From Candidatus Moranbacteria bacterium GW2011_GWC2_40_12 (GTDB taxonomy: Bacteria > Patescibacteriota > Minisyncoccia > Moranbacterales > UBA11712): a stretch of 64,000 bases of DNA. Shown here one piece after another: positions 40,424 through 44,951 of this stretch (positions within the stretch are counted from its first letter, which is position 1; each line of letters starts with the position of its first letter). The notes below the pieces were generated by a model. That model was not told the origin of the DNA, searched no databases, and was given only the letters and a program-made list of their open reading frames with translations. The position numbers and the translations under genes were made by a program. The DNA lies in the NCBI GenBank assembly GCA_000995965.1, contig LBYD01000001.1:207265-271264 (forward strand), written 5' to 3'.

Positions 40424-41794
40424 CTAAAAAATCATATCGCTTGTCAATTTTCCGCCTGTTTCGCCGCTCGTTCCATCTGCTCTGCGGACTTTGGCAGAAA
40501 AATCAACTTCGCCCGATCCGGATTGCTTCTGGACAAGCAGTTTGTAGTCTTCACGTGAGATATCTTCAGGAAGATTATATTTCAAAGTAATCGTTTTCGT
40601 CCCGCCCACCGGAACGAACACCTTCATTCCGAAAACCTTTTTCCCGAATTCCTGGGAAAAAACAACATCACCCTCCGGCCCGGATGATTCCTCAAGAAAA
40701 GAATTTTTGGGGACATAGACGCGGAGCCAGTCGCGATAGTCAGCCGTCATCCAATCTTTGGACCGGCATGTATGTTCATAGGTTATATTGAGTACCGCCT
40801 GGGGATTTTCACCTCCCATATCAGCGCTATAATCAATTTTTCGCCGCATGCAAATATCGCTTTTGAGCGCATTCATGTTCGCGTCAACGACCATAAGATA
40901 ATCTCCGTCAAATTCCTTCACTCTTCCGCCCCAGTTCATTTCATCAATTTCTTTCTGCAGCTGTTCGTCTTTGAAAAAAAACTGGATATCTTTTCTTTTG
41001 AGATGGCTTTCCATTCTTTTTCCAAGTTCCAGATTCTCGGAAATCGAAAATTTGTGGACTTTTTCAATGAGAACATCAGCCAGCTCGCCAAGTATGTTTT
41101 TTCGCTCTCCTTTGGCAATTCCCTGTTCCAAGAATCCCTTTTCCACCTGATATTCAAGCTGAAGAATAGCCGTCTGGTCGCTATATTGCCCCGGATAATC
41201 GTTGATTTTCACCGGCCCGGTGATCGCCAGAATGGAATTCAAAATATCAGTATTCACCGCGATAACGCCGTCAAAATTTTCCCCTCCCTCGCCGAACTTA
41301 TAGAAATACTCCGCTTTTTCGGCGTTCACTTTGAAATCCGGCGACCAGTTCGAATCGCGCATTTTCCAGGCTTTGATGCCGAGTATATCAGAAAAAGGAA
41401 CCGGCGGAGTTTCTGTCAACGGAATGCGCTGGTCAAAAATTCCTGTATCGTGAACGTCAAGGCCGGAAATTTTGCCATTTTTTGTTTTCACGATTCCGAA
41501 AGAGCCTATGAAACCGCCTCCCGGGCGAAGTTCCATGTCATTTTGAAAAAGGACGAGAAAAGTTTTCTCGCCGGAAAATCCTCCCATTTTATCGTATATA
41601 TTCGCCAAAACCGCAAGTTCATTTTTCCGTTCGGGTCCAACAGGCAAAATATTCGTGAGGGGTTTCAGGTTTTCGATGTTCCGGTTTTGGATTTGGAGAA
41701 AAATATACCAGCCAAAAAGCGCCAGCGCGGCCACGAGCCAGAAAATAATCCAGAATTTCCAGGTATATTTTCGACGAATTTTCGGATGATTCAT
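40424..41794 (-). CDS. DUF4012-like membrane-anchored protein
   Basis: N-terminal TM and ELRPGGGFIGSFG motif, as recalled for DUF4012. Adjacent to the polysaccharide cluster. Confidence 0.5.
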   Translation of the reverse strand: MNHPKIRRKYTWKFWIIFWLVAALALFGWYIFLQIQNRNIENLKPLTNILPVGPERKNELAVLANIYDKMGGFSGEKTFLVLFQNDMELRPGGGFIGSFGIVKTKNGKISGLDVHDTGIFDQRIPLTETPPVPFSDILGIKAWKMRDSNWSPDFKVNAEKAEYFYKFGEGGENFDGVIAVNTDILNSILAITGPVKINDYPGQYSDQTAILQLEYQVEKGFLEQGIAKGERKNILGELADVLIEKVHKFSISENLELGKRMESHLKRKDIQFFFKDEQLQKEIDEMNWGGRVKEFDGDYLMVVDANMNALKSDICMRRKIDYSADMGGENPQAVLNITYEHTCRSKDWMTADYRDWLRVYVPKNSFLEESSGPEGDVVFSQEFGKKVFGMKVFVPVGGTKTITLKYNLPEDISREDYKLLVQKQSGSGEVDFSAKVRRADGTSGETGGKLTSDMIF

Positions 41795-41853: not shown

Positions 41854-42279
41854 ATGTCACGCTCAAATAATTTTAAGCTTATGGACACTCAAAAGCTTCT
41901 AGAAGCAATAAAAAAAGAAAATAGAAAAACGAAAGATGAAACAGTGAAAGAGCTGAAAGGATATGTCGGAGAAGAAATCGATAAACTGGCCACAATGACC
42001 CAAAAAGGATTTCTGGAAGTGGGTGGAAGAATGGATAAACTCGATGGCAGAATGGATGGGTTGGATGGCAGAATGGATGGGCTGGAGGGTGGCATGGGAG
42101 AATTGAAAGTCGGAATGAAAAACCTGCACAAACGAATGAATGTTTTGGAGGATAATCAGGAAGAAATCAAAACAAAGCTTGACGGCCTCGCTTATCGCTT
42201 TGAATTGGAAGAATTGAGAGTCCAGCACTCGAGGCGCTTGCGGGCTTTGGAGCTTAAAGTTGGCATCAAGCCGGCATAA
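41854..42279 (+). CDS. coiled-coil protein with tandem GRMDxL peptide repeats
   Basis: GRMDKLDGRMDGLDGRMDGLEGGMGEL is encoded by a 21-bp DNA tandem repeat (about 42026-42100). The true start is possibly the internal Met at 41881. Confidence 0.35.
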   Translation: MSRSNNFKLMDTQKLLEAIKKENRKTKDETVKELKGYVGEEIDKLATMTQKGFLEVGGRMDKLDGRMDGLDGRMDGLEGGMGELKVGMKNLHKRMNVLEDNQEEIKTKLDGLAYRFELEELRVQHSRRLRALELKVGIKPA

Positions 42280-42355
42280 AAGATAAACACAATACTCAAT
42301 ACTAAATATACTGTACTAAAAATGGCTTTCTTAAGCCTTTTTTGTTTATTTCGAC

Positions 42356-42384
42356 TTGACAAAGACGTACCAGCCTGCTATGCT
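42356..42384 (+). promoter_or_regulatory. near-consensus sigma70 promoter TTGACA-17-TATGCT
   Basis: Hexamers read directly, with an AT-rich UP-like segment upstream. Fires into the GC-rich island. Confidence 0.45.
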
Positions 42385-42439
42385 AGACACACAAAATCGC
42401 AATGTGCGATAGGAAAAGTATTATTACCAACCAAAAGAG

Positions 42440-43030
42440 AAGGAGATTCGCCATGCCCGACGTTTTTTTGAGTACCTGCGGCCAGTGCCACTTTTTCGAA
42501 TGCAACGCCAATATCGGCGCCCAGGGCCCCATCACCTGACCCAGGTGAGCCCCCGGCGCGGGCTGGCGGCCTTTCCGCCGGCCCTGCCATCGTGAAAGGA
42601 GAGTTTATTAACCCCGGCCATTGCGGCCGCCTGACCGGCCCGCCGCTAAAGCGGTGGTTTCGGAGGTGCCCCATGACCATCACCCGGTGCCACAGGACAG
42701 AGGTTCCTGGCTAGGCGCAGACAATCTTCGGCAGCGGCCCGCGTGAGGCGGCTGACGAGATTGCGTGTAGTGCCCCGCGGGGTGACTAAAAGACCGGCGG
42801 CTCAATCCCACTCTGGGAATAGGCCTGGCGGCAGCTGGTGTCGGTGCCGATCCACGGAGATCTGGCGCCCGCGGCCCAAAGAACGCCAGCAGAGCCCTCC
42901 CACATTCCGGCCCATCAGCCTGACCTTTCCGCGGAAGGCCGGGCCAACGTCCTCGCGGGTTGTGTAGCAAAAGCGGTGCGGCTGCTGGGAGACACTCCAA
43001 CCCCTCCCGGCGCCGCGCCGCCCTTTTTTA
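42440..43030 (+). other. about 600-bp GC-rich (about 65 % GC) non-coding island; candidate structured RNA or foreign-DNA remnant
   Basis: Strong compositional contrast with flanking DNA at about 35-40 % GC. Dense GC hairpins (cacctgacccaggtg, ggcggcctttccgcc, ccccgcgggg). All six frames translate to Arg/Pro/Ala-rich junk. Confidence 0.4.
42453..42539 (+). CDS. 28-codon Cys-rich sORF (MPDVFLSTCGQCHFFECNANIGAQGPIT)
   Basis: ATG preceded by AGAAGGAGA at -7. About 60 nt downstream of the predicted TSS. Not in the ORF track because it is under 60 aa. Confidence 0.3.
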   Translation: MPDVFLSTCGQCHFFECNANIGAQGPIT

Positions 43031-44198
43031 CGAAAAGTGATTTTGTTCTTTTTTTATCGCCTCTCCGGATAACGAGGCAAATTATCAATCATTTAGGAGC
43101 TTCCAGTATCACCCCAGCAGAACCGGATTTCTGCTGGTTTTTTTTGAAAATTAATCTTTTAAAATTTTTCTTGCTTCATTTTTCCACCTTCTTTGTTGAC
43201 AAGAGCCAAAAAACTGCTAAAATCAGAACTACCAGAGAACTCCCTTTCTTTGGTGGTGCTTGCGGAGCGCGGATATTGGAGCTGGAAGTCAACCTCCCCG
43301 TTAAGCGACAACTAGAATCTCTCTTGTCCGCGACTCCGCCTTATTTCAAAAGTTTCAGTTCTTTATTAGAACCGAGAAAATTCTCGGCAAAAAATTCTCA
43401 ATCGGATAATATTATCCAGGGCTGGCGTTCGTTCAGTTTCAATTTCTAGAATCAAATCTAGCAATTATAAAACGGCCGCCAGCCTCCCCTTCCTTACAAT
43501 CTGTAAGGTTTTTTATTTCTCGAAAATTTTCTTTTGCGGTTTTTTTGTTGCCGTGGTAGATTATGAACATCAGTGTTTGAGGGAGGTGATGATGAGGAAC
43601 GCTTTGGTAAGGAAAGGCTTCGTCTAACGACGAGCAACACGAAACTTCACCCAGCCGCCGCTGGAAGAATCGTGGATATCATTCAAGAATTCAACGACTT
43701 ACTCCGGCGGCGCAAACTTTTTCAGTTCTTGAGAAATATACGGGCTTTGCCGGGGAAAACAAGGTTGATACCCATACTCCTTTCAAGTTTTCGGTGCTTC
43801 TTCCTTTTTTCCGGCAGCCCGCCAGCTCTTCGTGAGGAGCCTCCAGGCGATCCGCGGCATACCCCTTCCGCGGAAAAACCCGGGCCTGATCCACACCCGC
43901 CAACGCTTCAAAGCTGGTTCCCCCCGGCAAAGGCGGTGAGAGGCTCTTCACGAACCCTTTCAAAAAGTTTGCAGATCCCTGGCGTTTTTTGCTCCCGGGG
44001 GAGAAAAATCGGTCGAGCGAAAAACGCCAAAACCACTAAAGGGCCCCGCAACTCGGGGAAGAGGTGACCAATGGACTTCCCGGCAATTTTTGCGGAAGAA
44101 CTAAGGAGGACGCCTATGAGGAAAAGCACAACTGAGATAACTGGCGCGTTAATCTTCAAAAAATATAACTGAAACAAAAGCACCCCGGGGCTCATGCC

Positions 44199-44226
44199 AC
44201 GGGGTAATTTTTATCCTAAGATCCGA
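44199..44226. repeat. 27-bp direct repeat with REP-like palindrome (left copy) ttttatcctaagatccgatcttgggat
   Basis: Identical to the copy at 44925-44951. Contains the palindrome cctaagatc-c-gatcttgg. Confidence 0.7.
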
Positions 44227-44242
44227 TCTTGGGATAGAGATC

Positions 44243-44917
44243 TTAGGATAGATTTTCAAGAATTAGCTTTTCGTCTTCCTTTTTTAACTTCGCCGCCTCA
44301 ACATTCTCTTTTGCAAAATTTTCATATTCTTTATTGTTTTTAAATTGGCTCCAAATCACTTCTCCGTTACATATATCGCTTTTACTCTTTCTTAAGAAGT
44401 TCGACAGACTGCTCCAGGGGTATTTTTTCGCGTCCGAAATATTGTGCACTTCGGCGTTGCAATTTACGTAGGCAGAAAGATAAAGAAGATGATGAGTCGA
44501 TTTGATGAGGCTAGACTTGCACTTCCCCTGAAACAAGACTCCACTGCGATTATATTTTTTGTTGAAATACATTGTGAATCCTATCCCTACTCTTTGCATA
44601 AATCTTTCAATACCATTTTTTGCAAGTTGTTCCAGGACAAAGTGATAATGATTCGGAAGCAGAGAAAAACAAACAATTTTAACCAGCGGATTTCTTTTCC
44701 TAAGATCCGATCTTAGGAAGGTTTCTACTGTCGCTTTTGGATAGGTTTTTTTGTGATCGCGCCAGCGTATCATGAGACCGTCTTGCTCGTCGTTCATAAG
44801 GCGCATTGAAAGCAAAAAGCGACGATAATCAAAATCATCTAGAAATATTTTTCTTTTATCGATTCCTCTATTGAAAATGTGGTAGTATTGATCTTTAATA
44901 AATTGCACTTTTCGCAT
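44243..44917 (-). mobile_element. REP-associated tyrosine transposase / IS200-like Y1 HUH transposase
   Basis: HUH motif LLPNHYHFVLE, downstream catalytic-Tyr region LLYLSAYVNCNAEVHN, and C-terminal YPWSS, characteristic of the TnpA_REP/IS200 family. Flanked by identical repeats. Confidence 0.75.
44698..44718. repeat. third copy of the palindrome (tcctaagatccgatcttagga) inside the transposase CDS
   Basis: Read directly. In-frame, encoding FLRSDLRK. Confidence 0.6.
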
Positions 44918-44924
44918 AGATTTA

Positions 44925-44951
44925 TTTTATCCTAAGATCCGATCTTGGGAT
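44925..44951. repeat. 27-bp direct repeat with REP-like palindrome (right copy)
   Basis: Identical 27-mer. Abuts the stop codon of the ABC permease gene. Confidence 0.7.

Follow-up and report, generated by a model that had tools for sequence, protein, structure and literature searches.

A candidate gene for a modular, GC-rich RNA in Moranbacteria, with the stop codon of a short open reading frame inside a conserved three-helix junction

We analysed a 64,000-nt stretch of DNA from Candidatus Moranbacteria bacterium GW2011_GWC2_40_12 (assembly GCA_000995965.1, contig LBYD01000001.1; hereafter the window), in which a GC-rich intergenic element opens with its own promoter, a very strong Shine-Dalgarno (SD) sequence and a 28-codon short open reading frame (sORF). 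At about even confidence, we propose that this element constitutes a gene of its own, for a large structured RNA of modular build in which the role of the sORF is mainly cis-acting; it is a credible candidate for a new lineage-restricted RNA matching no known family. Six related elements were found in other Moranbacteria, each next to the same DUF4012 gene, which makes seven members with that of the window. The features that appear to be under selection are the promoter, a hairpin at the 5' end, the SD sequence and start codon, the position of the stop codon within the helices P1/P0 ahead of helix P2, and the sequence and pairing of the GC-rich body.

Results

A small family of related elements

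A starting set of syntenic loci from 27 species yielded one clear homolog, in Moranbacteria RIFOXYB1_FULL_43_19 (locus L008; related loci are given below by such numbers). An exhaustive search of representative proteins, with a spurious 101-aa open reading frame (ORF) spanning the core as proxy query, found L069, which comes from a different metagenome sample. L078, L079, L080/L081 and L084 were added through closer homologs of the DUF4012 protein, and L014 was recognised by its architecture. Copies from the same population were uninformative because they are all identical. Members whose flanking proteins are 64-80% identical keep the promoter, the 5' hairpin, the SD sequence, the stop position and the terminator. 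The pattern TTATTAAC..CTGACCGG..GGAGGTG, built on joints of the core, matched the L069 contig and an L008-type copy in a metagenome collection, plus six unrelated hits, and had no match in viral sequences. Since the metagenome scan returned only the L069 and L008 types, the exact core is rare. A looser pattern (CTGACCGG..GGAGGTG..ATGACC) was discarded as too generic, its 34 viral matches all being ordinary SD+ATG junctions of high-GC phages.

The sORF ends inside a three-helix junction

Independent minimum-free-energy folds of the region around the stop codon gave the same layout in the seven members, with the last codons and the stop in or at helix P1 (Table 1). P1 is nested in the outer helix P0, the stop codon falls within P1 in six of the seven members, and helix P2, 10-11 bp long across members, begins ~20 nt past the stop. 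P1 reads CACC-UGACCCA-GGUG in the window, GGCC-UGACCUG-GGCC in L078 and GGCC-UAAUCCA-GGCC in L084. On the unedited MAFFT alignment of the seven natural junction segments, 93% of the cells of P0/P1/P2 were paired, a percentage biased upward like the others of its kind; because the helices were drawn from the very sequences tested, the counts of double-sided changes are the sounder measure. Such changes occurred in 7 of the 18 pairs, against 3.2 +/- 1.1 in shuffled alignments, none of 500 of which reached 7. Sliding the partners by 1-3 columns lowered pairing to 32-52%. P2 taken alone was 98% paired, with double changes in 4 of its 10 pairs (one bulged C of L078 was removed for alignment). A covariance model of the junction scored the seven members at 54-81 bits (80.9 for the window) and, run on 562 kb of related loci, returned nothing beyond these seven training sequences.

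Strong initiation signals and a divergent peptide

The SD sequence pairs with the anti-SD at -9.3 kcal/mol, among the top 5 of the 54 long ORFs of the window, each taken at its best start (median -3.3). An initial annotation made from the letters alone had described an SD of a strength unusual for this genome, 7 nt ahead of a 28-codon sORF; strength and sORF stand, and the spacing is 6 nt. The SD is strong in all seven members (-8.2 to -12.2 kcal/mol), with the start codon 59-133 nt past the -35 box.

The encoded peptides vary widely. Three long forms, of 57 aa in L008 (MPNVFFRTCGKSRNLNEGTRITAASRVAQMMTVAPGTGTCHSLDLFYSIGALGSATT), 54 aa in L078 (MPDVFYRASGQSQNLSYDTCIACAATRAKMMNTPGAGTCHSHIEDTDLCASTAA) and 59 aa in L080 (MPDDFYRASGQSQKSIMASRNTCATRAVPRTKMKNIPGAGILNENDIEFYSIGALGPAI), align end to end, and the 28-aa peptide of the window is an in-frame 30-codon deletion derivative of this 54-59-aa form. 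The 38-aa peptide of L069 (MKKRKPGCVMRLKHPGLTGHGHVLKSEFYCIGAQGLDT) has a different N-terminus, while those of L084 (23 aa, MRSSSRLKPFEKCKDLFGASAPA) and L014 (37 aa) are unrelated. The cysteines of the window peptide are not conserved among relatives. The dN/dS ratio was 0.88-1.36 among the three long forms over their whole length, and the first 13 codons of the window and L008 differ by six substitutions, each of them nonsynonymous. A profile of the peptide retrieved only its own three clusters among 5.8 billion proteins, the sORF peptides matched no Pfam or NCBIfam family, and inspection revealed no hydrophobic or signal segment. Every indel in the sORF is in frame, which, with an excess of GC at third codon positions (see below), favours genuine translation. 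The evidence for selection on the peptide is mixed; as far as these substitutions tell, its sequence is under no visible selection.

A non-coding body built of modules

In 200-nt windows across 42,400-43,100, GC content was 0.58-0.675, against 0.38-0.45 in the flanks, and the body of the element reaches 65-67%. The initial annotation had placed a 600-bp GC island here within a 35-40% GC background. The island was recovered, its end lying slightly further downstream, with the terminator hairpin at 42973-43022; the background figure was too low, the mean of the 64-kb window being 45%. Its observation that all six frames of the island translate as Arg/Pro/Ala-rich nonsense was confirmed, and tblastx similarity is equal in six frames. 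The core carries several +/-1 indels among the window, L008 and L069, and therefore has no conserved reading frame. Among 1.84 billion representative proteins, nothing resembled the core except another spurious ORF over a homologous RNA.

A protein gene or high-GC pseudogene was rejected, since similarity is equal in all six frames, +/-1 indels occur and none of the long spurious ORFs matches Pfam; the periodicity by codon seen in the body was noise. Likewise rejected was a second coding ORF of 40 aa from GTG 42592, which +/-1 indels interrupt in L008 and L069. The 'hypothetical proteins' of 70-203 aa that gene callers have put over the element on both strands (public annotations of L001, L003 and L069) are almost certainly spurious; among them are ORFs of 203 aa (42838-43449, +) and 100 aa (42378-42680, -) and, in L069, the 197-aa P0001.

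Identity of the window to L008 and L069 was 72% and 50% over promoter and leader, 74% and 64% over the sORF, 92.8% and 90.4% over the core (42540-42790), and 64% and 43% over the 3' module. The flanking genes of the window and L008 share 78-81% nucleotide identity, and for the neighbouring coiled-coil protein L069 and the window agree at only 36% of residues. With 90-93% against 78-81% identity, the core is thus better conserved than the surrounding coding sequence. L084 and L020 carry a version of the core that is collinear yet diverged. Between the joints CUGA(C/U)CGG and (G)GAGGUG, the P4 stem differs by member, reading CCGCCGC/GCGGUGG in the window, GGCCGCC/GGCGGCU in L084 and CUGC/GCAG in L020. 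P6 changes from CAGGA/UCCUG to CAAGG/CCUUG in the diverged L084 and L020 cores, which amounts to two compensatory pairs, and keeps its CAGAGG loop. A variable upstream stretch, CGCCU, UACCU or CAUCU, can pair with the invariant AGGUG, so that this internal SD-like motif looks sequestered.

That motif belongs to a site resembling a ribosome-binding site, in which GGAGGUG (-10.8 kcal/mol) is followed after 4 nt by AUG and a 13-codon ORF encoding MTITRCHRTEVPG. The mini-ORF is kept in L008 and L069, reads MTPACRIFDPG in L020, and has a similar counterpart in the middle module of L078. It may be translated, although base-pairing of its SD is predicted.

L008, L078 and L079 have modules homologous to the 3' module M3. 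RNAalifold on an alignment of four sequences predicted 51 pairs, nine of them with double changes. The loop of its terminal hairpin is C-rich, with CCUCC in three of the four members, and the hairpin is more than a terminator, since no U-tract follows it in L078 and L079. L079 carries M3 alone behind its own promoter, with neither sORF nor core. L078 and L080 share a different middle module (M2b), and L078 and L069 share a 3' module by eye, a link that nhmmer does not give. The block GAGGCAACUC(C/U)CUGCC is common to L084, L020, L015 and L078. Judged from these comparisons, the body is a mosaic of exchangeable modules.

Promoter, leader and terminators

A consensus scan recovered the promoter named in the initial annotation with 10 of 12 matches; its -10 box is of the extended (TG) type. 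The 2.7-kb region holds 6 promoter-like sites, against 2.6 +/- 1.5 in shuffles. The promoter is kept in L008, L069, L078, L080, L084 and L014 as TTGACA-N17-TGCTA(C/G)G(C/A)T. The block containing the 5'-proximal hairpin (GCAAUGUGCGA) is kept in L008, L078 and L080, its counterpart in L014 being ACGGAUGUGCGAU; this hairpin may serve as a 5' stabiliser. The predicted transcript runs from ~42,391 to 43,030 (~640 nt) and would reach ~755 nt upon read-through of the first terminator. Such read-through may make region B part of the RNA of the element; this region also lies 3' of M3 in L008 and L079.

A cis-regulatory leader, attenuator or riboswitch was considered and rejected, two terminator-like sites following the element before a new promoter at 43196. 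The + strand between the element and the opposite-strand transposase gene described below holds no protein-coding gene.

Table 1. Positions of the element, its parts and its neighbours. Coordinates refer to the window unless a related locus is named.
Feature	Position	Strand	Details
Sigma-70-type promoter, extended -10	42356-42384	+	TTGACA (42356-61), 17-nt spacer, (TG)cTATGCT (TATGCT 42379-84)
5'-proximal hairpin	42396-42410	+	AUCGCA-AUG-UGCGAU; a few nt past the predicted transcription start
SD sequence	42438-42446	+	AGAAGGAGA; 6 nt 5' of ATG at 42453
sORF	42453-42539	+	28 codons; peptide MPDVFLSTCGQCHFFECNANIGAQGPIT; stop TGA 42537-39
Three-helix junction	42511-42586	+	Helices P0, P1, P2
P0	42523-24 and 42527-28 / 42552-55		CC and GG pairing with CCGG; outer helix around P1
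P1, stop-codon hairpin	42533-36 / 42544-47		CACC / GGUG; UGA 42537-39 at 5' side of loop
P2	42560-69 / 42575-84		GGGCUGGCGG / CCGCCGGCCC; 10 bp
Core module M2	42540-42790	+	251 nt, GC-rich, non-coding
Invariant core joints	42604-12, 42631-38, 42661-68		UUUAUUAAC, CUGACCGG, CGGAGGUG; then AUG 42673
Hairpin P4	42640-57	+	
Internal site and mini-ORF	42661-42714	+	13 codons
Hairpin P6	42693-97 / 42705-09	+	CAGGA / UCCUG
3' module M3	42791-43030	+	Ends in long near-invariant hairpin (42973-43022) with C-rich loop
First terminator hairpin	42973-43022	+	U-tract 43024-29; terminator-like site placed by scan at 43008-20
Region B	43040-43146	+	Possible 3' transcript extension; second terminator stem 43114-37 plus U-run (to 43146)
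Region C	43196-43520	+	Separate ~300-nt non-coding unit
Region D	43540-44215	+	Conserved non-coding block, ~650 nt
DUF4012 gene	40424-41794	-	
DUF7310-like coiled-coil gene	41854-42279	+	141 aa; match below threshold
IS200-like/RAYT-type gene	44243-44917	-	224 aa
Repeats bracketing the RAYT-type gene	44209-44235, 44925-44951		27 nt
GC-rich protein family genes	L080 3246-3932, L078 2249-2842, L010 8587-9282	-	Also in L016 and L017
Other GC-rich, non-coding, promoter-driven islands	L020 3850-4620, L015 1000-1400	-	Same position as element

Genomic context

Relatives of the flanking DUF4012 protein place the host in Candidatus Moranbacteria (Moraniibacteriota), within the Parcubacteria group of the Candidate Phyla Radiation (CPR). 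The locus is no assembly artefact: six independent assemblies, GCA_001784895.1 and GCA_003489455.1 among them, agree at 100% over the 1,971 nt of the intergenic stretch. Downstream of the coiled-coil gene come the element, the non-coding blocks B, C and D, and on the - strand a gene for a transposase-like protein of the REP-associated tyrosine transposase (RAYT) type, then two MacB/FtsX permease genes, followed by those for an ATP-binding cassette (ABC) ATPase and a YknX-like adaptor protein. All relatives keep this group of MacB_PCD/FtsX permease, ATPase and adaptor genes in synteny. The coiled-coil protein has GRMDGLDG repeats and its own promoter (11 of 12 matches); its gene adjoins the element in L069, where it encodes 110 aa (36% identical), and is absent from L008, L078 and L080.

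Region C, which is not GC-rich, has a near-consensus promoter of its own (TTGACA-16-TAAAAT with TG, 11 of 12 matches) and a terminator at 43492-43508 plus a U-run. Its distribution is wider than that of the island (L008, L009, L078, L079 and L080; nhmmer E 1e-43 to 1e-61) and it has no Rfam match. Region C is probably another unannotated non-coding RNA (ncRNA) of Moranbacteria. The second GC-rich stretch of the initial annotation is present as region D, a separate element with a different distribution among relatives (43,540-44,215): it occurs in L009, L010, L078 and L079 (E down to 3e-79), by eye also in L085, and L008 lacks it. Region D translates as nonsense in every frame and has no Rfam match at E<=10. 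The RAYT-type gene next to it scores 18 bits for Pfam Y1_Tnp, under the 23-bit threshold, and a palindrome similar to its flanking repeat (cctaagatccgatcttagg) lies in the intergenic region of L016. Because the otherwise syntenic L008 lacks both the RAYT-type gene and region D, their presence here suggests a recent insertion.

Several relatives have, directly 3' of the element or in its stead, a protein gene that is GC-rich (~60-65%) and carries its own promoter and terminator. The family concerned, of 197-231 aa, is absent from the window and finds no counterpart in Pfam or NCBIfam. In tblastx, weak similarity in pieces joins only L010 with L016 and L016 with L017; L078 and L080 were grouped by inspection. 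The islands of L020 and L015 have neither the sORF nor the P0-P1-P2 junction and share sub-modules with the family, e.g. GAGGCAACUC(C/U)CUGCC; L020 also matches the core weakly (E=4e-4 against L069). GC-rich RNA genes seem to have a hotspot here.

Discussion

How the element may work

We propose that the extended -10 promoter would fire and produce a transcript opening with a small 5' hairpin and a very strong SD sequence. Ribosomes would translate an sORF of largely free amino-acid sequence and terminate at a fixed stop in the P1 loop. The translating or terminating ribosome would melt P0 and P1 and halt short of P2, so that translation would act in cis, through protection of the 5' end, gating of the junction and of downstream folding, or both. 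The GC-rich body would be the functional part, made of independently folding, exchangeable modules: the core, with its SD-like GGAGGUG sequestered by upstream pyrimidines, and the 3' module, with its long hairpin and C-rich, anti-SD-like loop. These modules would most likely be units that bind proteins or RNAs, possibly after processing. The selected feature appears to be the site where the ribosome stops, not the peptide, an unusual coupling of an sORF to a conserved junction. Of the candidates listed by the initial annotation, the best supported is the first, a new large ncRNA that is structured and comes with a leader or regulatory peptide; in its favour are the lack of an Rfam match, the indels, the compensatory changes and the retention of sORF, SD and stop.

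Several observations weigh against this proposal. Besides the upward bias of the paired-cell percentages, the family is tiny, with seven junction-bearing members and the exact core in three, and the high core identity among these three genomes could come partly from recent recombination and not from constraint. Folding-energy z-scores, computed for five members, give the window body +0.7 on the sense and +0.65 on the antisense strand, no more stable than shuffles. The sense and antisense values are -1.2/-1.7 for L008, -2.2/-1.0 for L069, -3.1/-1.3 for L078 and -3.7/-1.5 for L080, so that the sense strand is favoured only in the last three and L008 is equivocal; because the test is weak in sequence this GC-rich, we did not use these scores as support. 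As to the sORF, its GC content at third codon positions (GC3) is 0.71-0.83, against 0.42-0.58 at the first and second, and the long peptides share the motifs MP[DN]xF[FY]R..G[KQ]S...PG[AT]G and EFYSIGA[LQ]G. The peptide may therefore be important. Four of the seven members have no stop in frame +2 either, which makes an open frame alone weak evidence. Finally, transcription, translation, the role of the ribosome in cis and any function in trans are all things we infer from sequence.

Alternative explanations

The most probable of the alternatives, which we still regard as unlikely, takes a fast-evolving, precursor-like or exported peptide as the functional product, perhaps leaving the cell through the adjacent MacB/FtsX-type ABC system, and the body as a stabilising 3' untranslated region (UTR). 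A conserved N-terminal 'leader' ending in PG[AT]G would then precede a variable C-terminal 'core', and the window copy would be a crippled allele. The long forms do align end to end and have their N-terminus, PG[AT]G and FYSIGA[LQ]G in common, and their C-termini vary; the GC3 excess, the in-frame indels, the strong SD of every member and the synteny of permeases, ATPase and YknX-like adaptor in all relatives all fit such a product. The substitutions do not: dN/dS is ~1 throughout, the supposed leader included. Nor does the distribution of the peptide follow that of the RNA, for L084 and L014 have unrelated peptides and L069 a replaced N-terminus, all with the junction RNA kept, while L079 keeps the 3' module without any sORF. 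The deletion in the window removes the PG[AT]G region, and its core is still 90-93% identical. Database matches and a hydrophobic or signal segment are lacking, as described above, and no maturase or peptidase gene was found among the neighbours (DUF4012, DUF7310-like, RAYT-like, MacB_PCD/FtsX). On similar grounds (origin by a 30-codon deletion, unconserved cysteines, dN/dS, no family, no maturase), the suggestion in the initial annotation of a Cys-rich toxin or precursor of the type of ribosomally synthesised and post-translationally modified peptides is weakly supported, the precursor-like N-terminus with PG[AT]G being what speaks for it.

Somewhat less probable still is that the transcript is a precursor of several independent small RNAs (sRNAs), a 3'-UTR-derived array from which RNases would cut the modules, the large RNA having no function as such. 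The C-rich, anti-SD-like loops could then target the ribosome-binding sites of mRNAs. The exchange of modules between loci, the occurrence of M3 alone behind its own promoter in L079 and the CCUCC in the terminal loop of three of four members agree with this, and there is a precedent in the CcsR sRNAs, which carry anti-SD loops and are processed from the 3' UTR of a small-protein mRNA (PMC8034643). The modules of the element, at 150-400 nt, are longer than typical base-pairing sRNAs, its best-conserved joints are SD-like and not anti-SD-like, and the Rfam CcsR1 model scores 16.8 bits against a threshold of 65.3. Several GGA motifs would also allow a speculative reading as a sponge for CsrA.

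Decaying, non-functional GC-rich DNA acquired horizontally and conserved through recent exchange between related populations is very improbable: the variable locus, where relatives have either GC-rich protein genes or islands of unrelated GC-rich sequence, the unremarkable stability of the window body and the small family would suit it, but the signals from promoter to terminator are kept at 64-80% flanking-protein identity, P0/P1/P2, P4 and P6 show compensatory changes, there is no translated similarity to proteins or to the GC-rich genes of the locus, and L069, from another metagenome sample, retains 90% core identity. The core being better conserved than the neighbouring genes, the decayed foreign DNA listed in the initial annotation is not supported. 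What that annotation had named as contrary signs also came out negative, promoter and SD being conserved in relatives and neither a fragment of a high-GC gene nor a chimera being present.

Significance

Genomes are small in CPR bacteria, which are believed to rely on other cells. Since a GC-rich RNA of 650-1,100 nt is costly in a small genome, the element, retained beside a cluster of cell-envelope and export genes, is likely important. We tentatively extend our preferred reading of a structured RNA with a cis-acting sORF to a claim that we consider rather less probable than that reading itself: large modular RNAs of this kind could form a class specific to the CPR, with translation built into the RNA mechanism. 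An sORF of unconstrained sequence would deliver a ribosome to the fixed stop of the junction and thereby gate the folding, stability or ribosome association of the body, whose SD-like and anti-SD-like modules would act on the translation machinery or on other RNAs. If confirmed, the element would be a clean natural case of a large RNA with a purely cis-acting sORF, and would stand as a counter-example to the automatic annotation of such ORFs as small proteins. A covariance model would clear the spurious hypothetical proteins (70-200 aa) from public annotations.

Comparison with known RNAs

Rfam 15 at gathering thresholds found three tRNAs only in the whole window, and tRNAs only in eight related loci. 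Over 42200-44300 at E<=10 it gave microRNA, small nucleolar RNA and long non-coding RNA noise, some of it on the terminator hairpin (best 24.8 bits against a 100-bit threshold), and on the L084 and L078 homologs at E<=5 noise with no family in common. No Rfam family reached its threshold on the element, the models including those for 6S RNA, group I/II introns and riboswitches. In the island, Rfam 15 found no signature of the rRNA, RNase P or transfer-messenger RNA (tmRNA) type, as the initial annotation had held; ARAGORN found no tmRNA in the window, and a search by eye for motifs of RNase P, tmRNA and the signal recognition particle RNA agreed with Rfam. A tmRNA was also rejected on layout, the sORF being SD-led and at the 5' end, unlike a tag ORF. 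The neighbouring RAYT-type gene raised the possibility of repetitive extragenic palindromes or bacterial interspersed mosaic elements (REP/BIME), which was rejected: nhmmer of the island against the 64-kb window at E<=10 found only itself, internal repeats are trivial, the RAYT-type gene is flanked by a different 27-nt repeat, and L008 has the island without that gene. Integron attC sites were rejected, the island not being repetitive and showing no attC core sites by eye, and so was a decayed copy of the 197-231-aa GC-rich protein family (L010, L016, L017, L078, L080), to which there is no tblastx similarity. No description of a large structured CPR-specific RNA was found in the searchable literature on ncRNAs of CPR/Patescibacteria.

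The element came to light by the GC-island logic by which large ncRNAs are sought in GC-rich intergenic regions, as in the DIMPL approach (PMC8723152). OLE, of ~600 nt (PMC9723947), GOLLD, ROOL, HEARO and raiA are, like the element, intergenic, structured, GC-richer than their hosts and 600 nt or longer. The element matches none of their covariance models even at E<=10, and is a mosaic found in a few Moranbacteria only. To our knowledge, none of these classes is defined by a translated sORF at its 5' end.

A resemblance in architecture is found in the CcaF1 (DUF1127)-CcsR 'cuckoo' RNAs of Rhodobacter and Sinorhizobium. There, the transcript of a small-protein gene also carries structured RNAs in its 3' UTR, of two hairpin-loops each and with C-rich anti-SD loops, and the loci have undergone duplication and reorganisation (PMC8034643). 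The sORF, the exchangeable modules and the C-rich terminal loop of the element recall this arrangement. Membership was rejected on the CcsR1 score given above and on a peptide without DUF1127 match. CcsR loops carry CCUCCUCCC, whereas the element has a single CCUCC in the terminal loop region; its modules are much larger, its best-conserved motifs are SD-like (GGAGGUG), and its host belongs to the CPR and not to the alphaproteobacteria.

Dual-function RNAs such as RNAIII, SR1/SR1P, SgrS/SgrT and VcdRP are single transcripts with their own promoter and terminator, as is predicted for the element. Promoter, terminator, strong SD and ORF are all present in the element and conserved at the sequence level. 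Both functions of SR1 are reported to be highly conserved (PMC3526287), whereas the peptide of the element is not. Nearest in size and layout is RNAIII of Staphylococcus aureus, with 514 nt and 14 stem-loops, in which pairing within the molecule is believed to influence how hld is translated (PMC12612679). RNAIII likewise joins an SD-led 5' sORF (hld, 26 aa) to a long multi-hairpin 3' part. There is no sequence or Rfam similarity between the two, and the element differs in having its stop codon built into a conserved three-helix junction and, unlike the RNAIII type, in a body that is modular and far GC-richer than its genome.

In the 5' mRNA stabilisers of Gram-positive bacteria, a 5' hairpin and a 'STAB-SD' protect downstream RNA from 5'-end-dependent decay. 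The element, too, has a hairpin right at its 5' end and, close to it, a very strong SD; unlike theirs, its SD leads to a start codon and an ORF with a fixed stop.

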